64,000 bases of DNA from Acidobacteriota bacterium (GTDB lineage: Bacteria; Acidobacteriota; UBA6911; RPQK01; JAJDTT01). The DNA lies in NCBI GenBank assembly GCA_965263035.1, contig OZ253580.1:5120001-5184000 (forward strand), given 5' to 3'. Of the stretch, positions 14,450-30,232 are shown one piece after another. Position 1 is the stretch's first letter; every line of letters starts with the position of its first letter. The position numbers and the translations under genes were made by a program. Below the pieces are notes generated by a model. The model made no database searches, was not told where the DNA came from, and worked only from the letters and a program-made list of their open reading frames with translations.

Positions 14450-15193
14450 ATGGACTACGAAGCGATTGCGCTTGAATACCACGAGAACGGATTCGGGGTC
14501 GTGCCCGGGTTCTTCTCATCCGAGGAACTGGCTGTAGTGGACCGGAAACTCCGCCTCTTTCTGCAGGAATCCCTTTCCGATCTGGAAGCCGGCGAAGCCT
14601 ACTTTGAGGATGGCGACGATGGTGCGGTGCGGTGCGTTTTCAGGATCAACCAACGCTCCGACTTTTTTGCAAGCCTGATGTGGGATCCTCGTCTGATTGC
14701 GCTCGTCGAGGCGCTCTATCCCGGCTTGGCGGCGGAGGCGGACGGCGTGATGCTGATCGACAAGGCCCCCTACGCCACCTACCAGTTCCCCTATCATCAG
14801 GACAATGCCTACCAGTTCTGGAACCCGGCGGAGGCCGTCGCCGTCACCTTGGCCCTGGACGAGGCCAATGACCGGAACGGGTCCATCGTCTGCCTGAAGG
14901 GCTCGCACAACGCTCCCATCCTGCCGCACCGGGCTTCGGGAGTCACCGGCGCCAGCCTGGGCCTGATGGAGAAGCCGGACCTCGGCCGCCACCCTGAGGT
15001 GTCACTCGACCTGAAGCCCGGGGATCTTTCGCTCCACCACGTCAACGTGATCCATCGTACCGGACCGAATCGCACTGCCGATCACAGGCGCAACCTCGGC
15101 TTCGCCTACCACTCTTCCCGGGCCCGGCGGGACCGGGAGGCCCACGCCCGCTACCAGGAACATCTGGGCCGGATCAACACCTCGATCGGGTAG
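14450..15193 (+). CDS. Phytanoyl-CoA dioxygenase (PhyH) family Fe(II)/2-oxoglutarate enzyme
   Basis: YHENGF, PYHQDNAY, GSH, HRTGPN...RR. Confidence 0.85.
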   Translation: MDYEAIALEYHENGFGVVPGFFSSEELAVVDRKLRLFLQESLSDLEAGEAYFEDGDDGAVRCVFRINQRSDFFASLMWDPRLIALVEALYPGLAAEADGVMLIDKAPYATYQFPYHQDNAYQFWNPAEAVAVTLALDEANDRNGSIVCLKGSHNAPILPHRASGVTGASLGLMEKPDLGRHPEVSLDLKPGDLSLHHVNVIHRTGPNRTADHRRNLGFAYHSSRARRDREAHARYQEHLGRINTSIG

Positions 15194-15291
15194 GCGAACT
15201 GAACAGTCGATGCTATCGGCGTGAGAGCCGATCGGGGCGTGGGCGACTGGCAGATCGCCCCTCCGGGTCGCCTTGATCGGCTTCGGACGCT

Positions 15292-16434
15292 GTGCCATTC
15301 TCGCGGCGAGTGACACAGACCTCGCCCAACACCACCTCATCGCCCCGAAACATCACCAGGAAACGCCTGACGCGGGATCTCATTCGACTTGGGGTCCGCC
15401 GGGGGGACTGCGTCATGCTTCACAGCTCCCTGAGCAGCCTGGGGTGGGTTGACGGGGGTGCGGCGACGGTGGTGGAGGCGTTCCTGGACGCCATGGGACC
15501 GGAGGGGACGTTGCTGACGCCGGCCTTTACGGGAGGAGCCTGGACCGAGTACATGGCCCTTCCGGACTGCCGCGACGTCTGCCCCCAGCCCTTCTGTCCC
15601 AGCCAGTGGGCCAGCCGGGAGGGAGCGATCCCGAACGCCGCCCTGCAGCGCCCCGGTCGTCTCCGAGGGTGCCATCCCACCCACTCCTGGATCGCCAACG
15701 GGGCGCGGCGCCAGGAGGCGCTACGCGGTCAACGGGACTGTCCGACTCCCTGCGGCCGAGGGAATCCGTTCGAGAAGGTGGTGGAGTGGGACGGCTGCAT
15801 CGTCATCCTGGGAGTCGGCGTCGACACCATCACGCTCTGGCACTATTACGAGGATCTCTTGGATGTGGACTATCTGGGCTACTACCATCCGGAGGCGCGG
15901 CATCTCTCCTACTGCGCCACCGGAAAGCGGATTCAATACGACTTCCCCGGGATCATGCAGGACGTGGTCCGAGCCTCCACGATCATGACTGTGGGAAAGG
16001 TCGGGAGAAGCGAGTCGGGGTTGATCCGGGCTCGCGTCTTCCGCCGGTTCATGGCCACCATCATGGCCGACGATCCCGATTGTTTCGTGTTGAGACCGGC
16101 GGATGCGGCAAACGGGGACTTGGCCGCCGACGCATTGGCCAAGGGATCCGCCATGCTCCGGGCCTGGCGCCGGGGTCCCGTTGAATTGCCCGTGCGGATC
16201 GACCTGCCGCAAGGCTACGACGATCTGGTCCGGGAGGACTGCCCCTCTTTTGCCGGCTACCACGAGGCGGTCGGCCGGCGATGGCCTCTCTGCTGGGCCA
16301 ACGACCGGCATCCGGAGTTGCACCACCACGGAGGAATCTTCGATCGTCTGGGAAAGACCTGCTGTGGCCGGTGTTCCTGGCACCATCGCTATCCGGAGGG
16401 ATCGGCCCGGTCGGAGAACGAAGGTCAAGGTTAG
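15292..16434 (+). CDS. AAC(3)/YokD family N-acetyltransferase with Cys-rich C-terminal extension
   Basis: LGVRRGDCVMLHSSLSSLGWVDGG, GTLLTPAF, HPTHS, LGV..T.WHY.E. Confidence 0.8.
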   Translation: MPFSRRVTQTSPNTTSSPRNITRKRLTRDLIRLGVRRGDCVMLHSSLSSLGWVDGGAATVVEAFLDAMGPEGTLLTPAFTGGAWTEYMALPDCRDVCPQPFCPSQWASREGAIPNAALQRPGRLRGCHPTHSWIANGARRQEALRGQRDCPTPCGRGNPFEKVVEWDGCIVILGVGVDTITLWHYYEDLLDVDYLGYYHPEARHLSYCATGKRIQYDFPGIMQDVVRASTIMTVGKVGRSESGLIRARVFRRFMATIMADDPDCFVLRPADAANGDLAADALAKGSAMLRAWRRGPVELPVRIDLPQGYDDLVREDCPSFAGYHEAVGRRWPLCWANDRHPELHHHGGIFDRLGKTCCGRCSWHHRYPEGSARSENEGQG

Positions 16435-16444
16435 CCGGAACTTC

Positions 16445-17162
16445 TCACCGGGATTCGAACCGAAAGGCGAACAGGTCCGCGTCCTTCAGGACGAAGCGAA
16501 GACGCACATCTCGTCCGGCCAGCTCGCCGACGTCCGGACCCTCCGTCCAGCGGACCTCCCGCTCCAGCTCGTCCCCGAACGTGGGCGGGCAATCCTCCAG
16601 GCTGTAGCCTTCCAAGGGATTTCCCGCGGCGTCCTGGATCTCCACGCGAAGGCTCCCCGCCGCCGAAGTGGAGAAGTTCAGCAGCAGCCGATCCCCCAGG
16701 AAGCGAATGGGGCGAGTGACGATCTCCCCGCCCGACATGGGTGCCGAGACCGTCACGAACCCGTCCAACCTCAGGGTGTAACGCCGCAGGTTGAGACTCT
16801 CGCCTGTCCAGTACCCCTCGGTGGCGTAGATCGAAATCTCGTTGGGAGCTCCCTCGATGTGGCTTCGGGTCTCCACCAGACCCCAGTTCTGATTGTTGTC
16901 CCCGTAGACCCAGTTATCCACCGGTCTCAGACCAGGACGGATGAAGGCTTCCCGCCAGCGGTGGAAGTGGATCCGGTCGCGGCTTGCCATCAGGAGACCG
17001 TCGGTGAGGCCGGTTCCGTAACGGAGGCTGACGCCGGCTCGCAGCCGGCGATGCTCCAATCCCGGGAGGGCTCTCATGGAATCGGACCATCCCCGCTCAA
17101 GGTAGCGGTTGGGAAACCCCAGCAGGATGTGAGGGGCCCGGTGGTAGGGAATGATCTGGTTG
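16445..17162 (-). pseudogene. 3' half of a beta-propeller glycoside hydrolase gene split by the integrated element
   Basis: Begins NQIIPYHRAPHILLGFP and continues the 5' half ending ...EHLYTNQ at 29381. Confidence 0.85.
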
Positions 17163-17179
17163 TTATGCACATGTTCCCG
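17146..17179 (+). other. Left attachment site, 34-bp lox-like (13-8-13)
   Basis: AGGGAATGATCTG GTTGTTAT GCACATGTTCCCG; shares core CTGGTTG (17156-17162) with the right end. Confidence 0.75.
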
Positions 17180-17211
17180 TCATATGAATCTGTTACTATA
17201 TGGAGGAACAC

Positions 17212-18174
17212 ATGAGCATAAACCTAGCAGAATCAAGACTTTCCATTGTCCCAAAGATGGAACAGGATGCTACGCTATCCAAGCTTCTGTCTCAATCCCA
17301 CAGCATTAACACGCTCAAGGCATATAATGGACAGGTGAACGTTGCCAAGCGCCGGGGACTTGATACTGACAACCTCACAGACTATTCCATCGCTCGATAT
17401 GTCGCCCTCATGATGGACAAGGGGACCGCCTATGCCAGCGCCTACAATGCCGTGAAAAGCTTGAACTGGTATTGGAGAGAAACCCATGGGCGCAAGGCTA
17501 CTGGCCCCATGACGAAAAAAGCCCTCGAAGGATTCCACCGAGACCATGAAGCGCAGAAGCGAGGCTACGGCCAAGTGGACGGGATCACCTGGAAAATGGC
17601 CGATCAGGTCTGTTCTAGGCTGGATCAACTCCGGACCCTGACCGCCCTTCGAGATTCCATGATCTTCGGCATTATGTCGGATGCCCTTCTCAGAGCTTCC
17701 GAGATGGTCAACGTGAGAGTAGAAGATATCGTGAGAGATCCATCCGGTTCCGGACTGGTAATCATCCGCCGATCTAAAACAGACCAGTACGCCGAAGGGG
17801 ACACCCGATATCTCAGGGCCGAGACTCTGAAACGGATAGACACCTTCCTGGATAGAGTCGGCATCACGTCAGGTCATATCGCCGTCAGGTTCCATTCCAA
17901 CCGGTACACCCGAGCAGTCATGGTAAAGTCTCAGAAGCCACTCAAGACACCTGGAATCCGCCAACTCACCGTCCGAAGGTTGACTCAAGCTGGATACCAT
18001 GGCCGGTTCGGTTCGCACTCGTTCCGAGTAGGGTCCGCTCAGGAACTCGCCCGCAATGGTGCCGGAGATATTGACATCATGAGAGCAGGTGGATGGAAGA
18101 GAGCCGACACCGCCGCGAGATACACAAGGAACGTTGAGGCTGGTAGATCCGCAATGGCGAGACTCAGGGGATAG
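17212..18174 (+). CDS. Cre-like tyrosine recombinase/integrase
   Basis: RBS GGAGG; DALLRASE (R), RRSKTDQ (K), GSHSFRVGSA (HxxR), MRAGGW, ARY (Y); 320 aa, apparently no arm-binding domain. Confidence 0.9.
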   Translation: MSINLAESRLSIVPKMEQDATLSKLLSQSHSINTLKAYNGQVNVAKRRGLDTDNLTDYSIARYVALMMDKGTAYASAYNAVKSLNWYWRETHGRKATGPMTKKALEGFHRDHEAQKRGYGQVDGITWKMADQVCSRLDQLRTLTALRDSMIFGIMSDALLRASEMVNVRVEDIVRDPSGSGLVIIRRSKTDQYAEGDTRYLRAETLKRIDTFLDRVGITSGHIAVRFHSNRYTRAVMVKSQKPLKTPGIRQLTVRRLTQAGYHGRFGSHSFRVGSAQELARNGAGDIDIMRAGGWKRADTAARYTRNVEAGRSAMARLRG

Positions 18175-18181
18175 GAGAAAA

Positions 18182-18694
18182 TCAAGCCCCTGTAGGCCAC
18201 TTAGTACTCACGTAACGATATGACCTAGCGCGTTTTAGATTGCCCACCCTTGCCCACGCTTCGAAGAAGGGCAGAACGCGCCACCACTGTTCCAAGTCAT
18301 TTAACTTGGGATATTGAATCCCGAGTCTGTCCAGCTTATGTGTGACCGTCAACAGTGTCGTCCTCAAATCAGGAGAAATCCGAGGCTTTTGTGGATCGTT
18401 AGAAACTTCGAGCGTGTACTCAACTCCATTCCTCAGATGGTGGATGTCGTCCTCTAGAGCACGAAACTTGTTCTTAGGTCTCCACAAACGGACAGCGTCC
18501 CAACAGAAATTGATGGGAAGCACAATTGAAAACACCACCGCTATACAGGCCAGTAACAGGAAGAAAGGCGGGTGGATTTCTAAGTTTCCTAGCACCTTCC
18601 TCGGACCACTGTGAAGGGTCGAAACAAACATCCAGATTGCCCATATATCGATTCCCATAAAACTAGCAATCGTGGCAATTCTTCGAATCCGCAC
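18182..18694 (-). CDS. Hypothetical membrane protein (element cargo)
   Basis: 170 aa with two N-terminal hydrophobic segments; converges on the integrase. Confidence 0.6.
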   Translation of the reverse strand: MRIRRIATIASFMGIDIWAIWMFVSTLHSGPRKVLGNLEIHPPFFLLLACIAVVFSIVLPINFCWDAVRLWRPKNKFRALEDDIHHLRNGVEYTLEVSNDPQKPRISPDLRTTLLTVTHKLDRLGIQYPKLNDLEQWWRVLPFFEAWARVGNLKRARSYRYVSTKWPTGA

Positions 18695-18844
18695 CCAAGC
18701 ACTCTACACCCTATCCCGTATTTGCGTCGAGTGAACAATCACCCATGAACCGGCCCGGCCCATGCTCTGGTACTCGTGAATCAGGGGAGCCAAGAGAGAG
18801 CCTGTCAGAGCCCCTAGAATCGACGTTCTACCGGGAGACGGCCC

Positions 18845-19927
18845 CTAGCCTCCCTCCATATCAAATCCGCAGATCCTCGCCGCCTGTTCCGCCGTCAGGT
18901 TTCCGTCAGTTCCCGTCATCGAACTGAAAGCCCTCGCCCGGCCTTGTAGGTCGCTGGCAAAAAGCCCGGCAAATCCAAGACTGATTTTCGTATCCAGCTT
19001 GGTAGACAACTCAGATTCGATGATCCGAGAACACGGCTTTAGACTTCCATGAAGAAATCTGCGCCAGCTTTCTCGCTGGGACGATCCCTCCGCTGACGCA
19101 TCCGCCAGCGCTGGCGGTATGCCGTTAGCTGCTAGGATCACTCGGCCCACGTCGCTCCATAAATCTACGTTTCCTTGCGGAATTTTGGCTCCCAATCTCT
19201 GCGGCACCCAGTCTCTTTGCGGAGCACTTCCGCGCCCTTCCGACCATCCGCCGGAAGTCGTCTCAACTAGGCTAATGCCGCCGCTCAAAGCTGCTAGGTC
19301 TGTTCTAAGCTGTTTCAATGGGTCCGAGTCTGTACCGTCTCCGCCATCGCTAGGAATCGGCAGAACGTAGCCAACTGGTCCGGATGTTTCTTCCCCTAGT
19401 CTCGTTTCCAGGTTCGCCCCGAGACTGCCCGTAGAACAGGCAAACGAAAGGGGAGAGATCCCTTTCCAGGGGGAGGACGGATGGACCGCAAACCGCACAT
19501 GGACGACTGAGGATGCCGGATAGGTTCGGGAAGTGGTAGAGCTAGGGCCGGGAAGATCAACTCTGTAGATCCAGGATTCCGGATCATAGGAACCTTCCAC
19601 TTGCCAGCCGGACCCCTCGATTAACCTAACCTGTCCACTCGGCTTGATCTCAATTACAAATAGAACCTCGCCGCGCCGGACCATTCCCCGGCCCATAGAC
19701 GCCAGCACAGCGGGAGACAGTGCCGCAGTGACCGGAGACCCTACCGGAGAAATATCAGCACTTGCCAGACCCCGAGACCATACGCCCGCCGCCACTTCCA
19801 AAGCGCCCAGGCCGTCAGGGTCCGGAGTTATTCCCGTCGCCCTGTCTTGAATCGCCTTAACAATGGCATCCGTATAGGTTTCACTAGAACGAGTTTCGAG
19901 ACCTACAATCCGCCGCCAGTTGAACAT
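18845..19927 (-). CDS. Phage portal protein (HK97-like)
   Basis: GLETRS, RRGEVLF, VVHVRF...PWKGISPL, ILAANGIPP, LKP..RIIESELSTKL. Confidence 0.75.
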   Translation of the reverse strand: MFNWRRIVGLETRSSETYTDAIVKAIQDRATGITPDPDGLGALEVAAGVWSRGLASADISPVGSPVTAALSPAVLASMGRGMVRRGEVLFVIEIKPSGQVRLIEGSGWQVEGSYDPESWIYRVDLPGPSSTTSRTYPASSVVHVRFAVHPSSPWKGISPLSFACSTGSLGANLETRLGEETSGPVGYVLPIPSDGGDGTDSDPLKQLRTDLAALSGGISLVETTSGGWSEGRGSAPQRDWVPQRLGAKIPQGNVDLWSDVGRVILAANGIPPALADASAEGSSQRESWRRFLHGSLKPCSRIIESELSTKLDTKISLGFAGLFASDLQGRARAFSSMTGTDGNLTAEQAARICGFDMEGG

Positions 19928-20292
19928 CACGCAATTACCCCGGCCCTTCTGACCTTCCACGGATTCAGAAGTGATCCCGCTCCCGAGTATTTCAACGCGC
20001 CCAGTTCATCCCGGAAGCGTCTTGAGGATATTTCCGTATTTGCCGTCTTGATCGTTTTTCCCCTGGACGCATCCGCCAGCCATGAAACGATCCTCAAAAC
20101 CGATTCGTCTTTGATAGGGTCCGGAGCTAGGCTTGCATATCGCTCTACCAGTTCCGCCGCTACCGGACCGAACCGAAGCGCCCGAGACTGCCCGGACGAT
20201 CCCGAATCGTTAAAGGCTGACGTGGCAATCCGCATAACTGCGGCATCCTGATCTAGAATATCAACCGGCCAAGGTGCGAGATTCACAGCCAA
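19927..20292 (-). CDS. Probable head-tail connector/adaptor (gp6-like)
   Basis: AAELVERYA..AP..IKDE.VLRIV.WL; C-terminal SGA.SLL.PW..RRAG; position next to the portal gene. Confidence 0.55.
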   Translation of the reverse strand: MAVNLAPWPVDILDQDAAVMRIATSAFNDSGSSGQSRALRFGPVAAELVERYASLAPDPIKDESVLRIVSWLADASRGKTIKTANTEISSRRFRDELGALKYSGAGSLLNPWKVRRAGVIA

Positions 20293-20735
20293 ATTCTACG
20301 CCTCCCTTGCCGGTTCCTCAGTTCCGCCTTTCCCTGAGAATATTCCGGAGCCTTCACAATCGCGACCGCTTCCAAGAACGCGGAATTGATCTCCCGGACG
20401 CCGGAGCCGTTGCGCTTCTCTTTCAGGCTGTAGAATTCGATGCTGGCACCCCGGACCCCAGCCGCTAGAGCCTGGATTATCTCGGAAGTGGGATTTTCAG
20501 AACTGACTTGGATTCTGCCGTCCGGTAGTCGTACCGGCATCGACCTTAATTCTTCACGGTTTCCGTGACCTAGCCTGATAGCGATACCATCAGATCCCCA
20601 TTGCATCGAGCCGGGAGCAAACAATTCTTTTAATCCGCTTGCTATTCTTCCCTCTTGTAGCGCCGTCACTATCAACTTGGATTTTCCCGAATCTTCCCGA
20701 ATCTCACAATTTCCAGCTACTTGTAATTCTCTCAA
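20283..20735 (-). CDS. HK97-family prohead protease-like protein
   Basis: KELFAPGS, H, GASIEF, R.I..A.L..VAIV..PEY. Confidence 0.65.
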   Translation of the reverse strand: MRELQVAGNCEIREDSGKSKLIVTALQEGRIASGLKELFAPGSMQWGSDGIAIRLGHGNREELRSMPVRLPDGRIQVSSENPTSEIIQALAAGVRGASIEFYSLKEKRNGSGVREINSAFLEAVAIVKAPEYSQGKAELRNRQGRRRIWL

Positions 20736-21181
20736 CTTGATCTCCCATACCAGCGCCGAAGCGCTTTAGCGCACTCGGGAGACAATTCTCCCGAAGAATC
20801 CGCCAGCCGAGACGCCGCTACCGCTTCCCCTGGATCTACCGTTACAATCCGCCCTAAAGTGCCAGAGCCGCCAGCCGAGATGATCCGTTCCCGGATACGC
20901 TCAACGGCAAGTGGAGAGCTAGAGCTAGTCGTCGCCCAGCCGTTGAGACCCACACTTGCCGCGAATCTTATAGCAGTCGATTTCAAGTAAAGCGCCATTC
21001 TCAAACCGGGATCGGTAGCAAGCCGGATCGGATATCGTTTCGTAACAGGGTCCCTTTCTATTCCGAGAATCGACGACCAGATAGCCGTAACATCAAAGAG
21101 ATGGTCATCGCTGGACCTGTTCTCTTCGTACCATTTCGATTTACCGGCACCAGCCGGTCCCCTGATTATTCCTATCGGCAT
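20732..21181 (-). CDS. Small P-loop NTPase/kinase-like protein
   Basis: IIRGPAGAGKS Walker A; VDPGE..A..R; ends RRWY. Confidence 0.65.
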   Translation of the reverse strand: MPIGIIRGPAGAGKSKWYEENRSSDDHLFDVTAIWSSILGIERDPVTKRYPIRLATDPGLRMALYLKSTAIRFAASVGLNGWATTSSSSPLAVERIRERIISAGGSGTLGRIVTVDPGEAVAASRLADSSGELSPECAKALRRWYGRSS

Positions 21182-22443
21182 TAGACAAGTTTGAACGCCC
21201 GGAGATCAAAAGAATCTTCTCTAATCACTTTGAAATTCCAGAGACTAATTATCGTCAAAGCAACTTGACCGGATGCCGCCGCCGTATACGGATCTCGAAC
21301 GATCTCCACACCTTCCCAGATCGGAGCCACAGCGCCGGTAGCTAGTCGTCTCGTAACAATCGCCGTAGAAACATCCTTATCGGGTCCGGTTGTAGGAGCA
21401 ACCGGAAGATTTCCAGAAACACGAACGCTGGAAAGATCGGCCAAGTATTCCAGAGCCGTTCTAGTCACTCCCGCTGTCATGGTCTTTGTACTCAATTCTG
21501 GATAAAGATCGGAAGGGACCAACAGCCCCACGTCTGCCGCAGTTGCCGCATATTTTCCGTCCACCGCCCCAGTGACGGATTTCACGGCATCCGCCCACGT
21601 AAAAACATCGCTAGGAGTCGTCGGAGCCGTGATCGTTGTAAGGATTCCGGAGACATTAGGTGCCGTTCCGTTTCCCGTAATGGATTGAAGATCAATTGCA
21701 TCAGATACAGTGCTTGATAAGTCTGCCCTCAGAGTATCGTCCATCCCGTCCAACTGCGCCGAATCCTCCACAGAGAACAGATACCGCGCCGTGATCCTGG
21801 TAGGCGTCAGCACTGAGCTACTGAACGTCGCCGCTACCGCATTCTGAGCCACGCCCCGAGTCTTATTCTCTGCCGTAGCACCGGCAGTCAGAAGCGGATA
21901 TGCCGTGGTCCCAGTTGGGACCGTCGGCATGGAAACTCCGAGAAACTGCGCCGCAGAAGCGGCAAAGACTCTCCGGATTATTTGAGTCTGCCGATTCGGG
22001 AAATTTAAAGCCCCTAGAGCCGTCGCCACGTCTGACCGCTTCTCAGGTTCAAGCGCTTCCGGACCCGCCAGAGCAGCCCAGGGGAAGCGCCCAGGGGCTG
22101 CTTTCTCGCCTAACATGGCCGTCCGTAATTCAGACTCGGGAGAAGATTCGGCAAGCGGATTCTGTCCCCATGCTTCCAGCACGTAGCTAGAGAGTTTCGC
22201 TTTCCGAATGAGAGACCGAATTTCCGCTCCCTCGCCGTCTTCTCTATCAACCGGCGGGATAGCCTCATTCTCCGCGATGATGGCCGCTCTATGCCTAGCT
22301 TCAAGATCGGAAAACTCTTTCCGCAGGGTCTCGCCCTCAGATCTAATATCCTCAGTAAAGTCTGCCCCGGATAATCCAGCTATGGAATTCAGTCTTTCGC
22401 GCACCTCAGAAATTCGCAGTGTTATTTTCTGGCTTGTAGTCAT
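21181..22443 (-). CDS. Major capsid protein (HK97 fold) with N-terminal coiled scaffold domain
   Basis: 420 aa; helical N-terminus; LTPTRI, DL..ITGNGT.P..SGI, IVRDPYT.A..GQV.L. Confidence 0.8.
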   Translation of the reverse strand: MTTSQKITLRISEVRERLNSIAGLSGADFTEDIRSEGETLRKEFSDLEARHRAAIIAENEAIPPVDREDGEGAEIRSLIRKAKLSSYVLEAWGQNPLAESSPESELRTAMLGEKAAPGRFPWAALAGPEALEPEKRSDVATALGALNFPNRQTQIIRRVFAASAAQFLGVSMPTVPTGTTAYPLLTAGATAENKTRGVAQNAVAATFSSSVLTPTRITARYLFSVEDSAQLDGMDDTLRADLSSTVSDAIDLQSITGNGTAPNVSGILTTITAPTTPSDVFTWADAVKSVTGAVDGKYAATAADVGLLVPSDLYPELSTKTMTAGVTRTALEYLADLSSVRVSGNLPVAPTTGPDKDVSTAIVTRRLATGAVAPIWEGVEIVRDPYTAAASGQVALTIISLWNFKVIREDSFDLRAFKLV

Positions 22444-22459
22444 TTTTTATCACCTTTAG

Positions 22460-22795
22460 TTATAAATAGTTATCAGTTATGCTTATTCTAGTCGTTTTAT
22501 TTGAAAGTGTCGTTAAATACTCTCGCCATTCTACACTATCGGGGCTGATACGTGTATTATTTTCCTTGCGAGTTTTGGAAATATGACAGGGTACACATAA
22601 AGACTGGATATTGGATCTCCCATACAGAGAACCGCCAGCATTTCTAGGCTTGATATGATCCGCTTCCAGCTTCCCGCGTTTCCCGCAGCGCTGGCACTTA
22701 AAGCCCGCTTCCCGTAAGACTCGCCAGCGCAGCCGCTCCCACCTTCTGCCCTTCAATCCGCTCATGCCGCCCGTACCACTCCGCCATTCCGCCAT
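22460..22795 (-). CDS. HNH endonuclease (packaging-associated)
   Basis: RWERLR..VL...GFKCQRCG, EADHI.P...GG, NIQSLC..CH..KT. Confidence 0.9.
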   Translation of the reverse strand: MAEWRSGTGGMSGLKGRRWERLRWRVLREAGFKCQRCGKRGKLEADHIKPRNAGGSLYGRSNIQSLCVPCHISKTRKENNTRISPDSVEWREYLTTLSNKTTRISITDNYL

Positions 22796-24864
22796 GATCC
22801 GCCAGAATTCTTTATCCTCATGGTCTCGGCCAATCCAGCCGCAATAACTGCCGCTGAGAGACTGTCTATCCTCGATAATCCGGACCTTTTATCTAATGCC
22901 GGATTTCCGGCACCGTCATAGCGGAGACGGGAGCCAGCTACCGCACTCGACAGCATCATCGAATCGCCGTGAAATAGTTTCTTTTCCATCACGAACCGCT
23001 GGAATGCTCGAACGTCATGGGAGCCATCCGCTGTAGCACTCGCCCCGGTTCCGCGCCAGACAACCGGAGACCGGGAGCCAGCATCCGCTAGAGCCTGTTC
23101 CGTCTCTGCCCGCCGGTATCTATCCGCCCCGATCACTAGCACTCGTTCGCCAGCCAGTTTCGATAGGACAGACTGCAAAAAGACTCCGACCCGGACCATA
23201 CGCCCCTGATGGAGATTCAATTCTCCAGACTTCCTCATTAGGTCATATCGGATGCCGTCTCGACGTTGCCGAGCTTCGATCCCGGGCATCGACGGAAAAG
23301 CCCCAAAAACTTCGATCCGACCAGTTCCAGGCCATAAGGCTGTTGCGGCAGTCATAGAAGCGGACCCGCCTAGATCAATGCCCAAAACACATTTCCCGTC
23401 TCTTTCCGGTTGCGGACCGCTGCAACGCTTCCAGTCTGAAGGGGAAACGATCCTTTCCACGGATGGCGACCCCGGCAGATTCAAGTCTTGAGACCTAAAG
23501 AAAATTTCATCAGATGGAGTCGATTTAGCCCGCCTGGATTCATGCTCCATATACGCCGTGGCTTTGATGGTCCCTAGACCTGGATTAGCGTTTTCCCACT
23601 CAATTCGGTTCAGTAGGTCGCAATCCTTACTAGATGCCTGGAACAGATGCGCGACAACGCCAGCGGCTTCCCGCCTTTTCATAATTTCGGGAATGTAGGG
23701 ACCGCTCCCCCATATGGACAACGCTATAAATTTCCCGTTTTTCGCCGATACCGCAGCCCTCATGCTGGCGACTAGTTCCCGATCTCGTTCGGATAGCAAG
23801 CCCAGTTCGTCAACAATCGCTAGATCCAAGCTGGCGGAATGCCCGCCCATGCCCGAGTCACCAGCCAAAATCTCAACCTGACCATGCTTACTAACAATCT
23901 TTCCAGGCCATGGACTTCTCTTAAACAATAATGTTCTGGATAGTCCACTTGCTCCCGCTATTTGCTCAATTTGTTTCGTTAGTTCCCTCGCTTTAGCCTT
24001 GTTAACACTGCAAATTCCAGCCCGCCACCCACCTTTAACGTTTCTTAATGGCCCTACCAAGTGACCTAGGCAGAATACGGCAACTATTGCGGATTTAGCA
24101 TTCTTTCTAGCGAGACAGAGCAGCGCTTCTCTTGTCGATGGCTTTAAGCAATCACCTAGAAAATTGCGTCCAAAAGGTGGCAAAGCCATAGGCAGACCCT
24201 CTTTAGGATGCCCAGGGGGAACTATTAATGTCTCTTCTGCCCATGCTGACAACCGTTCTATCTTGGATTTCTTCCGTTTAACACTGCTACTCGGCCCTTT
24301 TCCCGGTATAACGTTGTTTTTCCGGTTGATTTTCCTCCAGGCACGAGCATTACACGCCCTAGTAGCATACTTTTTAGGTTTTTTGGTATTCTGTATCAAT
24401 TCAACGCCGCAGCCACAAGCACAGTATTTAAGTCTATTCCCTACTAGGCCAAGTCGCTTATTAGTAAGAAAAGCCTGAATTCTGCAATTATCGGTAGCGT
24501 ATAGAGTAGGTATCCCGTGGAGTTTATGTATCCGAGCTGGACGACCGCACCCGCAAGCGCAGTCCGGACCAGGATTCGGCTTTTCGTAAACCGTTTGATA
24601 TGATGCCCGATGCCGACAATTTTTTGAAGCGAATCCAGTCCATTTCCTCAGTGACTTCTCAGAGCGTGAAACCGGTTCACCACAACCGCCCCGGCAACGT
24701 GGTCTAGTCTCTGGTCTCAGTGAGTCTAGGCCACCCCTCGATCCCCCCGGTTCGGATGGATTCGGAACAGGGTCCCGGACCATTTTTTGATCCATATTCT
24801 CGTATGTACAAATTTTTGGATCATCCCCTTTGACCATCTTCGATCGAGAACCGACAAGCATCAA
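22762..24864 (-). CDS. Terminase large subunit with N-terminal Cys-rich repeats
   Basis: Walker A LARKNAKS, Walker B LAIVDELG, W..ANPGL, nuclease LGIDLG, RID...A; three N-terminal CxxGCG...CR/CN repeats. Confidence 0.8.
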   Translation of the reverse strand: MMLVGSRSKMVKGDDPKICTYENMDQKMVRDPVPNPSEPGGSRGGLDSLRPETRPRCRGGCGEPVSRSEKSLRKWTGFASKNCRHRASYQTVYEKPNPGPDCACGCGRPARIHKLHGIPTLYATDNCRIQAFLTNKRLGLVGNRLKYCACGCGVELIQNTKKPKKYATRACNARAWRKINRKNNVIPGKGPSSSVKRKKSKIERLSAWAEETLIVPPGHPKEGLPMALPPFGRNFLGDCLKPSTREALLCLARKNAKSAIVAVFCLGHLVGPLRNVKGGWRAGICSVNKAKARELTKQIEQIAGASGLSRTLLFKRSPWPGKIVSKHGQVEILAGDSGMGGHSASLDLAIVDELGLLSERDRELVASMRAAVSAKNGKFIALSIWGSGPYIPEIMKRREAAGVVAHLFQASSKDCDLLNRIEWENANPGLGTIKATAYMEHESRRAKSTPSDEIFFRSQDLNLPGSPSVERIVSPSDWKRCSGPQPERDGKCVLGIDLGGSASMTAATALWPGTGRIEVFGAFPSMPGIEARQRRDGIRYDLMRKSGELNLHQGRMVRVGVFLQSVLSKLAGERVLVIGADRYRRAETEQALADAGSRSPVVWRGTGASATADGSHDVRAFQRFVMEKKLFHGDSMMLSSAVAGSRLRYDGAGNPALDKRSGLSRIDSLSAAVIAAGLAETMRIKNSGGSWRNGGVVRAA

Positions 24865-25301
24865 CGACCACTCCCGCCACGTCTCTCGAAATTTCCACGA
24901 CGTAGCCTATCCGTCACCACTCGCACCGTTCCAGCTACCGCCCTTTGGACAAAAGCGGCAGGGACACCAAGCCGAGCCGATCCTGATGCGTTTAATTTCT
25001 CGATATGCCGCAGCCCATTAGAAACGTAGGTTTTTCCTCGTTCCAACTTGTAGCCAGTAAGGATAGCCCCGGAGGACGTTAGCCTATTCTCCCGAGCCTC
25101 CCGCAGCCCTCGAACTGTCCCATCCCCTTGCCCGCCCATCGACGGATTCCAGTTACTTGCCGTCCACGTCGATTCTTTAGGGCATTTATTATAAAGCTGG
25201 CGTGACGCTTCAAGTGTGGCGTTTACTACAGTGTTTTCGACAATTCGCCTAATCTCTTTGCGGATTGCCTGGATTTGAGCCTTTTCGCTTGCCGTGGGCA
25301 T
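24861..25301 (-). CDS. HK97 gp10-like neck/tail-completion protein
   Basis: CP.ESTWTASNW, YVSNGL.HIEKLN..GSA....PAAFVQRAV. Confidence 0.55.
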   Translation of the reverse strand: MPTASEKAQIQAIRKEIRRIVENTVVNATLEASRQLYNKCPKESTWTASNWNPSMGGQGDGTVRGLREARENRLTSSGAILTGYKLERGKTYVSNGLRHIEKLNASGSARLGVPAAFVQRAVAGTVRVVTDRLRRGNFERRGGSGR

Positions 25302-25352
25302 ATTTTGACTCTTGGAAACGGAACAGTTACAGGGGAATGGTCATTGACCTAG

Positions 25353-27117
25353 CCCGGATATCTCATCAGAAAGATTGATAAAGGCCGCGTTTTCTGCTAT
25401 AAGTGTTGTGTAATCAATAACTTACAAAGCAGAAGGGACGCGACCTTATGACCGCAGAGTGTACCAGAATAAAGCTCAGATTTCAGGGCCTGGACGGACG
25501 GGATGTCGTGGGCCGGTTCGACGGCGGCGAGATCACCTCCGACGCCGGTGGCGTGCTCCTGCGCGAAGTGGAGCAGCGGACCCGGATTCTGGGTCGTCTG
25601 AGCGAATGCTTCACCGACTATCGAGACTCGGATCGAGTCGAACACCCGGTGGAGGCGTTGATCAAACAGCGGGTGCTGGGGCTGTGCCTGGGCTACGAGG
25701 ACCTCAACGACCACGACGAGTTGTGCCGGGACCGGCTCTTGGCGCTGTTGTGTGATCGAGATGATCTGACGGGGGAGTTCCGGCGCGTGGAGTCGGATCG
25801 AGGCAAGCCGCTGGCAGGCAAGAGCACCCTGAACCGACTGGAGCGGACTCCGTTGGAGGGACCGGAGGGCGCGTACAAGAAGATCGTGGCCGACCCGGCG
25901 GGGATGGACGAGCTGCTGCTGGAGGTGTTTGTGGAAGCGCATCCGGAGCCCCCGGAGGAGGTGATCCTGGATGTAGACGCCACGGACGATCCGCTGCATG
26001 GGAAGCAGGAGGGACGGTTCTTCCACGGCTATTACAAACGCTACTGCTACCTGCCGCTGTACGTCTTCTGTGGGGAACACCTGTTGCGTGCGCGGCTGCG
26101 CACGGCGGATCGAGGCGCGGCCCACGGGGTGGTGGCGGAGTTGGAACCAATCGTGAGGCGGCTGCGTGAAGCGTGGCCCCAGGTGCGGATCACGGTTCGA
26201 GGGGACAGTGCCTTCTCCAACGACGAGTTGATGGTCTGGTGCGAGAAGGAAGGGATCGATTACGTCCTGGGGTTGGCGCAGAACGATCGGCTGAAGCGGA
26301 GGATCGCGACCCGGATGGAGACCGTCCGGCAGTTGCAGCGGGCGATCGGGAAGGCCGTGAGGCAGTTCCAGGAACTGCGCTATCAGACGCACAAGAGTTG
26401 GTCGTGCGAGCGCCGGGTGGTGGCGAAGGTGGAGCACCTGCCCCGGGGAAAGAACCCGCGATTCATCGTGACTTCGGTCCCGGTCCAGGAATGCGATGGG
26501 CGAAGATTGTACGAGGAGGTCTACTGCGCGCGGGGAGACATGGAGAATCGGATAAAGGAACAGCAGATGGGTCTGTTTGCGGACCGCACGTCGACCCGGA
26601 AGCTGGCGGGGAATCAACTGCGGTTGTATTTCTCGGCATTCGCCTACGTGATGATGGAGACGTTGCGACGGGTGGGGCTGGCGGGGACGAAGCTGGCGCG
26701 GGCGCAGAGCTGGACCCTGCGGGTGAGATTGCTGAAGATCGGGGCACAGGTCCGGATCACCAGCCGCAAGGTCTGGTTGTCCTTTTCCGAGAGCTATCCG
26801 TATGCGGCGCTGTTGAGGACGGCTCTGACGCAAGTGCAAGCCCTCCCGCTTCGCTGTTAGCAACGGATGGAAAGAACTCTTTGGACGATGGCGACTTGGG
26901 AGTCCCCAGGATGGACTGCGCCCCGGAGTGGGCACCGGGTCGAGAGTCGTCGCTCAGAAGCGCAGGATGGGCGTCAAAAGGCTCTGGAGAAGCGCTGCAT
27001 CTGGCCGTTGGTCGGCACGTTCGAGCACGAAAACTGCCTCTTGAACTCGTATGGATAAAGAATCACCCAGACGACGGTTCAACTTCCGTTTATTGTTCTA
27101 CTGATGAGAAATGCAGG
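25353..27117 (+). mobile_element. IS1380-family insertion sequence
   Basis: Terminal inverted repeats CCCGGATATCTCATCAG / CCTGCATTTCTCATCAG; CTAG duplicated at 25349-25352 and 27118-27121; GC much higher than its surroundings. Confidence 0.9.
25448..26860 (+). CDS. IS1380-family DDE transposase
   Basis: FDGGEITSDAG, GYEDLNDH, LDVDATDD.LHG.QE, RGDSAF, YCARGDMENRIKE. Confidence 0.95.
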   Translation: MTAECTRIKLRFQGLDGRDVVGRFDGGEITSDAGGVLLREVEQRTRILGRLSECFTDYRDSDRVEHPVEALIKQRVLGLCLGYEDLNDHDELCRDRLLALLCDRDDLTGEFRRVESDRGKPLAGKSTLNRLERTPLEGPEGAYKKIVADPAGMDELLLEVFVEAHPEPPEEVILDVDATDDPLHGKQEGRFFHGYYKRYCYLPLYVFCGEHLLRARLRTADRGAAHGVVAELEPIVRRLREAWPQVRITVRGDSAFSNDELMVWCEKEGIDYVLGLAQNDRLKRRIATRMETVRQLQRAIGKAVRQFQELRYQTHKSWSCERRVVAKVEHLPRGKNPRFIVTSVPVQECDGRRLYEEVYCARGDMENRIKEQQMGLFADRTSTRKLAGNQLRLYFSAFAYVMMETLRRVGLAGTKLARAQSWTLRVRLLKIGAQVRITSRKVWLSFSESYPYAALLRTALTQVQALPLRC

Positions 27118-27164
27118 CTAGGGGAAAAGGCTCCATTCCCCTGCAACAAGGAGATATCAAAGAC

Positions 27165-27173
27165 AGTATAGCA
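27165..27173 (-). promoter_or_regulatory. Extended -10 promoter (TGCTATACT) facing the packaging operon
   Basis: Same 9-mer as at 29247-29255; lies upstream of the gp10-terL operon once the IS is removed. Confidence 0.45.
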
Positions 27174-27426
27174 AAAAGATATGACTATTTATTGGGAATA
27201 TAGCCTCGAAGCCATAGTAAACAATGAAGGTAGGCTATTCACTACTGACAGTATCACTAAGGACACTCCAAATTAAGGCTCCGAGACTATAGGGTGATGA
27301 ATCCAACTGCATTATCTCATAAAAGGTATGACTAAAAATCTTTCCAGACCAAAGAGAATAGATAAAGCGTCAGCTTATAAACGATATGCCACAACGCCAA
27401 GAATATCAGCACGAGTACAAGCAACG

Positions 27427-27663
27427 TCACCGAGACGCCACTCTCCAGCGACGATCAAGCCGGGAGCCATCGACCCACCGCCAAGCTTGTATCCCTTCCA
27501 ATGGCCCCCAGTGCAAGGTAGCGATCTCTGCCCCATTGCCTTTTAGGATCAGCCTACCGCGCATCCGATCCCACTCTACAGCCGTCGCCCTGTAGATTCG
27601 GCAGTCATTCGATTTCCCCTGGAATTGCACTTGAACCGACTTGATCTTGATTTTTTGCATCAA
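27427..27663 (-). CDS. Small hypothetical protein
   Basis: 78 aa, co-oriented with neighbours; an overlapping + strand ORF is the alternative reading. Confidence 0.4.
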   Translation of the reverse strand: MMQKIKIKSVQVQFQGKSNDCRIYRATAVEWDRMRGRLILKGNGAEIATLHWGPLEGIQAWRWVDGSRLDRRWRVASR

Positions 27664-27691
27664 GTGAGTCTAGTGTACCAGGGAGACAGCG

Positions 27692-28105
27692 TCAGTCGTC
27701 GTGGTGTCCAGCGATCCGCGTCAAATCACGATAAAGGTCCCAAATATCACGAGCGATCATTGCCCCAGTTTTTCGGATAATTCTTCTCATCGTAGCTTCA
27801 ATTCGACCCTCACTAGGAGGACGGATTCCCGGAGGAAGGGTCTCGATGGGATACACATACGATTTATGTAAGTCGCTTCCATCATACTTTGTTGATTGTT
27901 CCATTATTTTTCTGAATTTATGTCTTAAGCCATCTGGAAAATCTTGTTCTCTCAGTGAAGATAGGTGGTAAATCAGCGCGTCTTTCAATCTATTCCTCAC
28001 ATCTCCCTTCCCAACGCACATAGTTTCAATCGCTAAAGTTACTCGTTCAAGAACGTCCTTTGCTTTTTCTTTGTTTCCCATCGGAACTAGACCCCCGTAA
28101 GCCAT
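27692..28105 (-). CDS. Hypothetical helical protein (element cargo)
   Basis: 137-aa AT-rich ORF; G.GDVRNRL, DFP..LR, EGRIEATM. Confidence 0.6.
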   Translation of the reverse strand: MAYGGLVPMGNKEKAKDVLERVTLAIETMCVGKGDVRNRLKDALIYHLSSLREQDFPDGLRHKFRKIMEQSTKYDGSDLHKSYVYPIETLPPGIRPPSEGRIEATMRRIIRKTGAMIARDIWDLYRDLTRIAGHHDD

Positions 28106-28108
28106 CCC

Positions 28109-28514
28109 TCACTTAGTGGCATCTCCGCAATCTTTCATGACCCGACATATATCGCTCATAGACTCTTTGATTCTTATAATTTTCATTGATTGCGATTTAT
28201 TGAGTTTACGGAGCACAGTCGCTTCGGACTGTGAAACCTTGTCGTCTGGAAACTGTTGGGATGGAATATTTGCATTATAAAACCGGATGTTTTCGCATCG
28301 GTCCAGCAATACTGGCCGTGGCTTATTCGATGACATCTCAGGTCGGAGTTCAAATTTTTTGGATTCCAAATTTTCATACCAAACATGCTGGGCAACTACT
28401 GTGACCAGCAAATACCTTGGATCAGCATCACAGGGCTTTTCAGCCTGCACCAGACCCGTGAACAGAACCGCCAGCAATGCAAAATTCTTGCCAAAGTTGC
28501 AGCCCTCACTCATG
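28109..28514 (-). CDS. Hypothetical exported Cys-containing protein (element cargo)
   Basis: Signal-like FALLAVLFTGLVQA after MSEG; upstream RBS GGAAGG. Confidence 0.5.
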
Positions 28515-28792
28515 TTCCCCTTCCTTCCTTCTCGCCCTAGTCTCCAAAATTTGCCGTATCCGCTCACGGGATATCCCGAACCGGCCACCGATCCTCTCTA
28601 ACGTCTAATCCGCAGCCCGAAGGGACCGGATGACCCGGTTCCGTATTGGCCGATGGTGTGGAACTGCTTTTTTCATGCCGCTTTATTCAGGATTTCTTCT
28701 TTTTTTATTTTTAACACTTCAACCTATAAAGTGAAACAACTTAACGATGCTTTCTCTAGTCTGGAAGATACTCAGGAAGGATTCTCACTCGG

Positions 28793-29240
28793 CCCCTTCT
28801 CTCTCCCCCTATAGATCCTGTTTCGATTACCCTGGATAGATTCAGGCAGAGAACTATCTAGCACTGTGCATGCGTTAGGAAAATACCTTCCGCACACACA
28901 GTCCTGTTCCTTGTCTGAATCTATGATCCCGCTCCGATCAGAGCCTATCAAGACCCAGGCAGAGACCCAAAAGTTGTGGATCTCATGGCGTCAGCTACTT
29001 TATCGCGGAGCAACTTCTCACACGTCATGCTCCCCTTCCGACGCTCCGAACTGGGGAAGAATCCTAGTGCATGATGCACGGCAGTGGATTCATTTTTTGC
29101 GGATTACTTACTTCCTCGATCCCTGCCGCCAAGCGGTTCGAGAAAGGTGCAATGTCACGCCCGCTCCAATCTTGAATCCAGCCTCAAGACTCCGAGTGGA
29201 TCAGACCCGGTATCCCAATCGCCTTAAGGCTGGATTCGAT
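28793..29240 (-). ncRNA. Candidate highly structured non-coding RNA (about 410-450 nt)
   Basis: Extended -10 just upstream; about 9 consecutive hairpins whose non-Watson-Crick pairs are mostly G-U on the minus strand; ends in a purine tract. Confidence 0.55.
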
Positions 29241-29246
29241 GGAGGG

Positions 29247-29255
29247 AGTATAGCA
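29247..29255 (-). promoter_or_regulatory. Extended -10 promoter of the candidate ncRNA
   Basis: TGCTATACT; predicted +1 near 29240, 3 nt before the first 17-bp stem. Confidence 0.5.
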
Positions 29256-29330
29256 GATAGGTCTGTAAAAAAGAAGCGTTTTTCCAACTTTTTATCATAC
29301 CATTGTAAATTTAATGCTCAATGCCGAGGC

Positions 29331-29359
29331 TTGACACTGGAAAGGGAATTTAGTACAAT
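29331..29359 (+). promoter_or_regulatory. Near-consensus sigma70 promoter pointing out of the element's right end
   Basis: TTGACA-N17-TACAAT. Confidence 0.7.
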
Positions 29360-29370
29360 AGGCGAGTAGT

Positions 29371-29404
29371 AGGGAACATACTGGTTGGTGTAGAGATGCT
29401 CGTC
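29371..29404 (+). other. Right attachment site, 34-bp lox-like
   Basis: AGGGAACATACTG GTTGGTGT AGAGATGCTCGTC; core CTGGTTG at 29381-29387. Confidence 0.75.
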
Positions 29405-30212
29405 CGGAGAACCGGTGGTAGTTGAGCCAGACCGGATCGGTCCAATTCAGAAAATCCTGGGAAGTTCCGGTCATGACGTCCCGGATACCCTTGGTTCTCG
29501 GCTGATTCTCCGCAGTCTGCCTGAAGTCGCGGTGGTATTCGCGGTACTCGTTTCTGACCGAATCCCAGAAAGCCAGGTTCTGGGAGTCGAAGTAGCCCTT
29601 GGTGATAACCGGGCGGTCCGCCATCAACTCCCAGTGGATGGCGTCGGCCGACTTCCAGGCGTAGAGTCCCCATTTACGGCTCAAGGAGAAGGCCTTGTAG
29701 CGCGCGTCGGGCGAGGCCGCCGGATTTGCGTCCTTGAAAGGGACGAAGTTCCGAATCGTATCCCCGTTTGGGAGCCGATCCAGGAGGATGTTGTTCCGCT
29801 TCGACCCCTCGAACTCGACCAGGCCCAGTTGGGGCCGGTACCAGTGGATCCCGTCCAGACTCTCGGCGTAACAGGTCACCTGCCGGCGTGGGAACTCGAG
29901 CTTCTTCCCGGTCACGAAGTGCCAGCCCCGGTAGTACATGCGATAGCGGTTTTCATCCTGGAAGATAGTGAAAGTGAAGCAGGCATTCCCCTCCCACGGA
30001 CGATCGGTCACCAGGGCCACTCCTTGGGGAATCGGGCGTTGCAACCGGAGTCGAGCCTCGCCCCGGAGTTCTTCCACCAAGCTCGGTTCCACGAACAACT
30101 CCAGCCGGGAACCGATGTCCAGGACCTCCGAGTGGAGGCTCCAGCAGAGCATGGGGAAGAGCATTGCGAGGATCCGCGGCCTACTGAAAAGCGACGTCAA
30201 GGTCCGGTTCAT
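29381..30212 (-). pseudogene. 5' half of the split glycoside hydrolase gene (also has a +1 frameshift near 29416)
   Basis: MNRTLTS signal, ELFVE, DRPWEG, CYAESLDG.HW.RP, FDSQN.AFWD; GSPDEHLYTNQ lies in a shifted frame. Confidence 0.85.
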
Positions 30213-30232
30213 TCCTGTTTCTTCCTTTCGCT

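Follow-up and report, generated by a model that had tools for sequence, protein, structure and literature searches.

A 12.2-kb phage-like island with a Cre-like tyrosine recombinase in a gene of a large paralogous host family in an Acidobacteriota bacterium

A stretch of 64,000 nucleotides from an Acidobacteriota bacterium (contig OZ253580.1 of assembly GCA_965263035.1, positions 5,120,001 to 5,184,000), called the window here and numbered from its first letter, contains a 12.2-kb phage-like island that entered one of the many paralogues of a host gene family; both junctions were read directly, and the empty site was found in related genomes. At its left end the island carries int, whose product Int is supported as a Cre-like tyrosine recombinase by sequence and predicted fold. 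The two junctions may be explained by exchange across a matched overlap in a site of 11-6-11 geometry, a homology-dependent reading which we favour, with modest confidence, over exchange between heterologous spacers. A predicted promoter at the far end of the island would be joined to int only in the excised circle, giving a hint of how the direction of recombination could be controlled.

Insertion of the island and the empty site

The island was delimited from the composition of the DNA, from its two junctions, and from the corresponding loci of relatives. Between the junctions the guanine-plus-cytosine (GC) content in the profile of the window was 0.46-0.57, against 0.61-0.66 in the surroundings. 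The features of the insertion are as follows.

17163-29387, no strand: integrated island (GC profile, junctions, empty sites in relatives, contigs bridging both junctions)
17146-17179, + strand: attL, composed of host arm B, shared core and element arm P' (read directly)
29371-29404, + strand: attR, composed of element arm P, shared core 29381-29387 and host arm B' (read directly; host part confirmed in orthologues)
17156-17162, + strand: CTGGTTG, the 7-bp identity of attL and attR, attL copy; the attR copy is at 29381-29387 (direct junction comparison)
16445-17155, - strand: host gene, 3' part (family of 71 or more matches per genome; without a Pfam family)
29388-30290, - strand: host gene, 5' part, far end approximate (alignment to orthologues)

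Counting one copy of the core, the island comprises 12,225 bp, or about 10.5 kb without an insertion sequence (IS) that it carries. The sequence-only reading of this DNA had deduced two 34-mers as the recombined sites; they lie at 17146-17179 and 29371-29404, and exchanging the halves of the two 34-mers gives the attP and attB that it had quoted. attL reads AGGGAATGATCTG-GTTGTTAT-GCACATGTTCCCG and attR reads AGGGAACATACTG-GTTGGTGT-AGAGATGCTCGTC. Common to both, in order, are GTAGGGAA, then, after four differing bases, CTGGTTG, and then nTnT. CTGGTTG is the sole long identity between the two junctions, and on these letters the crossover must fall within or beside it. In the integrated form both junctions were bridged by contigs from four public runs of two studies.

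Scored matches to the family of the host gene number at least 71 per genome in the source genus and in the sister genus. Neither half of the gene matched a Pfam family, and the motif occupied by the island is a conserved one of this family. In all eight related loci examined (L018-L024, L027) the host flanks abut without a gap. Six of these loci are orthologues in genomes of the same genus, with 88-93% protein identity and open frames of 513-1034 codons. Across the empty point the letters are those of the rebuilt attB, with a deviation at one of 34 bases in L020. attB is contiguous in the uninterrupted orthologues, and the proposal that it lies inside a coding sequence is supported. The rebuilt attB matches attP at 21 of 34 positions, and by our own tally about 70 of about 12.4 million genome positions do as well. 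Four other paralogues carry the same 12-mer core, and among the five paralogues sharing it only the occupied one has AGGGAA in its left arm. The only joint in the contigs that skipped the island, from 17149 to 29380 with five other letters between, was rejected as an empty site since it came from a paralogous gene at position 4422045 of the source genome.

The recombinase Int

The recombinase gene lies directly inside the left junction.

17212-18174, + strand: int, encoding a 320-aa two-domain tyrosine recombinase of predicted Cre fold (Pfam, PDB, AlphaFold, Foldseek, Cre alignment)

The open reading frame (ORF) opens at an in-frame ATG at 17200, and ATG 17212 is the likely start because GGAGG stands at 17203-17207 and a database protein has 320 aa. 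The start codon is then 32 nt from the end of attL, and the att core is about 50 bp upstream of it.

PF00589 was the sole Pfam domain of Int (6e-13, 49.4 bits versus a cut-off of 27.1); together with the catalytic R-K-H-R-W/H-Y residues it places Int in the tyrosine recombinase superfamily. In a PDB sequence search all 17 matches at E ≤ 0.01 were Cre or its derivative Tre (3e-15 to 2e-13). Pairwise, Int and Cre of phage P1 were 28% identical over 196 residues (E 4e-18), the N-terminal domain not being alignable by BLASTP. R161, K189, H269, R272, W295 and Y304 of Int align with R173, K201, H289, R292, W315 and Y324 of Cre, the list of Cre residues being taken from PMC10250229, and the C-terminal helix aligns too (SAMARL in Int, GAMVRL in Cre). 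The Cre-like C-terminus noted in the sequence-only reading is thus real.

The AlphaFold model, built from 62 relatives, had a mean predicted confidence (pLDDT) of 88.3, with low confidence for residues 1-19, helices in 20-115 and then the catalytic domain. Among the Foldseek matches listed through rank 30 all were Cre or derivatives, with template modelling (TM) scores of 0.65-0.76 over about 300-320 columns; for most Cre chains the values were 0.72-0.76 over 304-323 columns. The next match listed was XerA at rank 33 with TM 0.47, and lambda Int chains aligned much more weakly (E 3e-7, TM 0.57-0.59). Resemblance to Cre, which was the protein compared, a length within 300-400 aa and a modelled Cre fold over the whole protein would place Int among the Cre-type tyrosine site-specific recombinases (Y-SSRs).

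No beta-rich arm-binding domain was seen in the model and no additional Pfam domain was detected, which supports the earlier suggestion that Int lacks such a domain. As modelled, Int would therefore differ from the heterobivalent lambda-type integrases, which are defined by an N-terminal arm-binding domain, and would agree with the simple arm-less integrases in having two domains and being encoded on the integrated element that it presumably inserted.

Searching 50,697 phage records by tblastn (E ≤ 1e-6) gave only 25 matches, all in P1-like phages, falling under Cre or Dre genes or, in two records, under unnamed genes. With the NCBIfam Xer models Int scored far under the cut-offs (35 bits versus 220). 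By the ranking of E-values and TM scores Int appears nearest to Cre and Dre and not to Xer.

Palindromic sites beside the genes of relatives

The site of Int was compared with those of its relatives, many of which have a palindrome near the gene for the recombinase. It is built as 11-6-11 from half-sites of consensus GCTTCCGATAA and a 6-nt spacer of variable sequence; GATAA, the inner five arm positions, is the best conserved part. Sites were counted with at most three substitutions in 16 specified bases, against two scrambled controls.

Same-genus paralogue loci: site in 10 of 11; first control 0, second control 0
Genome contig loci: site in 23 of 80; first control 5, second control 1
Viral contig loci: site in 42 of 80; first control 4, second control 1

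In total 75 of 171 loci (L002, L029-L198), from many phyla and from IMG/VR contigs, had a site close to the recombinase gene. Where a site was present, the one nearest to the gene lay upstream of it in 35 of the 42 viral loci, at a median of 64 bp, and in 17 of the 23 genome loci, at a median of 120 bp. We found no name for this site. A generic scan for inverted repeats upstream of the relatives' genes (15 of 80 windows versus 26 of 274 controls) was replaced by these motif counts; several of the repeats it returned were terminators, for example in L088, L094, L110 and L111.

Some loci deserve separate mention. The arm of the palindrome resembles the lox arm of the P1 record. Family genes in a Rhodothermales metagenome-assembled genome (MAG; L082:9914-9941) and a Terriglobia MAG (L102:9923-9950) are immediately preceded by sites with the common pattern ACTTnCGATAA-TTGnAn-TTATCnnAAG, and in L082 the arm has TAACTT..CG..ATA in common with the lox arm of P1. 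In MAG contig JAJEDB010000073.1 (L118:11676-19380) seven sites were counted in the 8 kb that follow the recombinase gene; their arms are the same and their spacers all differ. For at least five, a + strand ORF ends no more than about 50 nt away, and from its layout this array looks like an integron-like or dif-module-like cassette array. Further multi-site loci are L111 with four sites, and L066 and L078 with three each.

Symmetry of the att site and the position of the overlap

The rebuilt attP contains a perfect 8-bp inverted repeat, GGGAACAT/ATGTTCCC, with a gap of 16 nt. Its dyad lies between positions 17 and 18 of the 34-mers, and CTGGTTG (positions 11-17) is immediately to its left. Two registers can be drawn on this sequence. 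In the 13-8-13 register the spacers of attP and attB differ at two of eight positions. In the 11-6-11 register the site is AGGGAACATAC-TGGTTG-TTATGCACATG, and the 6-bp spacer TGGTTG is the same in attP and attB, so that an ordinary homology-dependent exchange would suffice.

The sequence-only reading had described attP as a 13-8-13 site like loxP. The perfect 8-bp repeat that it reported is present; the 13-8-13 division had been assumed, and only eight of 13 arm positions are symmetric, with five asymmetric and attB still more degenerate. Cre-type Y-SSR sites as defined in PMC10250229 have at most two asymmetries, half-sites of 13-15 bp and an 8-bp spacer, and attP falls outside this definition. 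Its further statement that the spacers differ at two of eight positions is correct in that register; as the register was assumed, a tolerance of Int for two spacer mismatches is not established.

The 11-6-11 register is preferred on several grounds. The 7-bp identity block has the usual size of an overlap region, and most tyrosine recombinases need identity in the overlap (PMC2817482). The sites of the relatives have the same geometry and likewise lie upstream of the gene. The flanks of the spacer, CATAC/TTATG, resemble the inner GATAA/TTATC of the relatives' palindromes; scored for the inner motif in this register, attP ranks in the top 0.23% of the genome positions sampled, and the register 3 nt to the right, equivalent to 13-8-13, is at 23%. 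Finally, the junction type observed is the only one that a matched-overlap model predicts.

Several observations weigh against this reading. Among 373 positions in the AT-rich 400 bp around attP, the inner-motif score comes only 6th, the model behind it is partly circular as its sites were picked with the same motif, and the relatives that define the geometry are only 25-40% identical. The centre of the 8-bp repeat is 3 bp to the right of the centre of the TGGTTG spacer, and in the 11-6-11 register the right arm has only its inner 4-5 nt in common with the left arm. By hand alignment in the 13-8-13 register, each of the four half-sites agrees with ATGTTCCC in at least five of eight letters, always equally far from the dyad; the counterpart in half-site B' is ATGCTCGT. 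For the proposed control of direction, scans for a sigma-70 consensus are no evidence of function. In addition, neither an excised circle nor an empty site was found in the four runs, where contigs were searched, which drop rare forms, and an IS insertion together with a frameshifted host fragment would be compatible with an island that has lost its mobility.

The alternative, on the model of the sequence-only reading, is a lox-sized core of 13-8-13 (or 14-6-14) centred on the GGGAACAT/ATGTTCCC dyad, with TTGTTA as the overlap of attP and TTGGTG as that of attB. Exchange would begin on the left at the shared TTG; at the second step two mismatches would be tolerated, or the Holliday junction would be left to replication for its resolution. 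Int would then be of Cre type with a second exchange that is independent of homology, as in IntDOT. We regard this as rather unlikely, though as the likeliest of the alternatives. Perfect 8-bp repeats number about 226 per gap length in the 6.2-Mb genome, and the chance that one encloses the crossover is roughly 0.5%, a post hoc figure of our own arithmetic from genome counts; the outer limits of the repeat, 32-34 bp, equal the size of loxP (13-8-13). B' matches P' at five of six positions (ATGnTC) and at eight of 14 in the same register, again by hand alignment. The products fit a top-strand exchange on the left, with an element-type spacer in attL and a host-type spacer in attR, and the array in L118 with its constant arms and variable 6-nt spacers is also in favour, as is the precedent of IntDOT, for which identity beside the first cleavage can suffice (PMC2817482). 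On the other side, the identity CTGG at positions 11-14 stays unexplained by this core, the inner five arm positions would be asymmetric here, unlike the GATAA of the family, and the requirement for overlap identity in most tyrosine recombinases, as given in the same source, speaks against mismatched spacers. The model also predicts two junction types, of which the observed one is only one, and it is based on a single integration event.

The asymmetry of the arms could also be accounted for by two recombinases acting on one core, as XerC and XerD do on dif, with Int reading the AGGGAA-type left arm and a host or paralogous enzyme the right arm; the repeat copy at the outer right would then serve as an operator or accessory site. 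The inner arms of the 11-6-11 site are near-palindromic (CATAC / TTATG) and the outer arms differ. Such a combination is the pattern of dif-type sites. By hand comparison the outer parts of attP and attB agree (AGGGAA on the left, nAnATG on the right), and the genome has nine other tyrosine recombinase matches (10 with int), including a paralogue 38% identical to Int. However, the true palindromes of the relatives imply a single recombinase, the island has its own complete Int, catalytically intact by its residues, and for a partner enzyme there is no direct evidence; we consider two recombinases very improbable, the least probable of the explanations weighed here.

No arm-type repeat family stood out in 28550-29420 or 17100-17400, where unfamiliar motifs could escape. 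The attP region, 1226 bp long, contained 20 half-site-like words, about 16 per kb versus 11 per kb island-wide, and showed no enrichment of them. A third such word in the spacer of the island-end promoter (29344-29351, 6/8) was discarded as background.

A putative split promoter and the proposed mechanism

A promoter-like sequence directed outward was identified close to the right junction.

29331-29359, + strand: putative outward sigma-70-type promoter, TTGACA-17-TACAAT, 11/12 (consensus scan; 12 nt from attR)

Sites of at least 11/12 were rare, just 36 on both strands of the 6.2-Mb genome including this one, and no promoter-like site was found on the + strand in 16700-17400, which includes 500 bp upstream of int. 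In the circle the island-end promoter would read across attP into the promoter-less int, and would do so in the circular form only. State-dependent promoters of int have been described, namely Pcirc of ICEclc (PMC5812530) and that of ICEKp1 (PMC13023037).

On the matched-overlap reading, the island would have entered by site-specific recombination between a short attP adjoining int and a look-alike attB in coding sequence. Int probably works like Cre and Xer, with monomers bound on the two half-sites of a core of about 28-34 bp and two cores then synapsed as a tetramer, and the strand exchanges most likely flank TGGTTG, inside CTGGTTG. Direction is probably set by expression: in the prophage state int would be without a promoter of its own, and the strong outward promoter at the far island end, joined to int only in the excised circle, would favour re-integration. 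We infer that this Int made the insertion and needed no accessory factor, that its cuts would lie at the edges of TGGTTG, and that the island-end promoter would be active.

Gene content and state of the island

Besides int, the recognisable genes of the island belong to the phage head and to packaging.

18845-19960, - strand: portal-like gene (PF04860 1.4e-08, under the curated cut-off; phrog_12 portal 8.7e-07)
21181-22443, - strand: major capsid gene (PF05065 3.7e-08, above the cut-off)
22460-22795, - strand: HNH endonuclease gene (PF01844 2.4e-10)
22762-24864, - strand: large terminase gene (PF20441, TerL nuclease, 5e-11)
25378-27092, + strand: IS inside the island, with a DDE transposase at 25448-26860 (PF13701, DDE_Tnp_1_4, 2.6e-148)

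No tail, lysis or replication genes were recognised in the island despite its head and packaging genes and integrase, nor was an excisionase-like gene. Five to eight small island ORFs had no family in Pfam, PHROGs or PADLOC, PADLOC giving zero matches for eight island proteins, and no tRNA was found in 15000-31000. The IS has a GC content of 0.57-0.63. Contigs stop at its ends (25377 and 27093), and its word depth is about 8-24 times that of the flanks in the four runs, so the IS should have many copies in the genome.

The presence of this IS raises the question of whether the island is a decayed, immobile remnant. attL and attR would then no longer be functional sites, for example after a 6-bp insertion in P' following integration, and they would allow no inference on site geometry or spacer tolerance. 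The right arm can be written, in a hand comparison, as the left arm plus six bases (GGGAACAT[GTGCAT]AA versus GGGAACATAC), and an extra T at 29416 breaks the frame of the 5' host fragment relative to L018 and L020, the two orthologues aligned. The excision joint missing from the contigs of the four runs fits decay, and so does the lack of close relatives of Int in 76 order-level genomes (E ≤ 1e-30) and 401 phylum-level genomes (E ≤ 1e-55), both sets including the source genome. Against this, int is intact with all catalytic residues kept, and by hand count the present P' arm is closer to B' (6/11) than the idealised arm is (3/11); proteins 87% and 65% identical to Int exist in metagenomes, from which it follows that the lineage is alive. 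We consider decay very unlikely.

Distribution of Int relatives

The closest homologues of Int, on ENA contigs, were 87, 65 and 40% identical, followed by a broad clade at 33-38%. Database proteins of this clade number at least 562 at E ≤ 1e-5, and its confirmed places in species genomes at least 530. It is frequent among MAGs labelled Poribacteria, Dadabacteria, Thermodesulfobacteriota, Acidobacteriota and Gammaproteobacteria, and a genome often has several copies. No close relative was found in viral or genome contigs with the single protein as query, nor in metagenome contigs with an alignment as query. The order-level genomes gave nothing beyond paralogues of 38-40%.

Such paralogues occur in seven of eight other genomes of the same genus. 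In the source genome (G000) the paralogue 38% identical to Int has its own consensus promoter (region G000:C1:5660618-5661893); seven copies of the relatives' palindromic site are present in this genome, one of them about 240 bp downstream of the paralogue. The paralogue gene, G000:5660883-5661893, was tried as a model for the island and dropped, since there was no repeat of its upstream region within 60 kb and it had its own consensus promoter. On one MAG chromosome (OZ243919.1) two 1.9-kb copies, 99.3% identical (L049:9566-11444 and L051:9566-11444), carry essentially just a family recombinase gene, with no palindromic ends seen; their unrelated flanks suggest a minimal mobile unit.

Significance

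If Int alone recombines short sites, it would form a new Cre-like recombinase/site pair, and the use in engineering that the sequence-only reading had foreseen for such a pair is plausible. Since attP and attB are different, a working pair would follow a natural landing-pad logic, which makes it attractive to genome engineers. Int would further be a natural case of a Cre-fold enzyme serving chromosomal integration instead of dimer resolution, and the split promoter suggests a very simple way of biasing a reversible recombinase to integration. Int opens a large uncharacterised clade with conserved 11-6-11 sites. In kind the finding is unsurprising, as arm-less tyrosine integrases and hundreds of Cre-type candidates have already been published (PMC8138268, PMC10250229).

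A more far-reaching picture would be that of a Cre-fold, arm-less enzyme which naturally integrates across overlaps differing at two of 6-8 positions by an IntDOT-like second exchange, with direction set only by the split promoter and with the wider clade perhaps containing integron-like or dif-module-like cassette systems. We offer it as speculation, and rather doubt that it holds.

Comparison with known systems

Cre/loxP of P1 and Dre/rox of D6 are the closest known systems, providing the nearest solved structure and the nearest relative in cultured phages. Cre resembles Int in its two-domain fold without an arm-binding domain, in the six catalytic residues, in the C-terminal helix and in a short site close to the gene, whereas the identity is only 28% over 196 residues. 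Its loxP site is a perfect 13-8-13 on both partners, and here attP has only eight of 13 arm positions symmetric and attB is degenerate. Cre, annotated as a cyclization recombinase, separates P1 genome dimers; the island of Int is integrated in the chromosome.

The palindromes of the relatives and the favoured register are also like the dif site of XerC/XerD, which has 11-nt arms, a 6-nt spacer and inner ATAA/TTAT. The island recombinase differs in being dedicated and encoded beside its site, and the relatives' sites in being palindromic and multi-copy.

About 500 Cre-type recombinase/site candidates have been predicted, with eight reported as active (Jelicic et al. 2023, PMC10250229). Int is similar to these in its Cre-likeness, a length of 300-400 aa, the catalytic residues and a site within 1 kb, and its site falls outside the filter described there (at most two asymmetries, 13-15-bp half-sites, 8-bp spacer). 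The functionally closest kind would be the arm-less tyrosine integrases of phages and islands, such as Brujita Int, IntKX and XerT (PMC8138268), which have only core-binding and catalytic domains and integrate phages or islands. Those are described as Xer-related lineages of mycobacteriophages and gammaproteobacterial islands, unlike Int, whose nearest characterised relatives are Cre and Dre.

IntDOT of CTnDOT, which needs identity only beside the first cleavage and carries out a homology-independent second exchange (PMC2817482), would be the precedent if the spacers truly differ. In ICEclc and ICEKp1 an outward promoter at the element end is fused upstream of int in the circle only and favours re-integration, as predicted for the island. 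These elements are conjugative, however, and have arm-binding integrases, and ICEclc is described as also having a weak Pint, whereas upstream of int no promoter-like site was found here. What is new in the present island is the recombinase lineage, nearest to Cre and Dre and not to Xer, the asymmetric attP/attB pair within coding sequence and the predicted split promoter.

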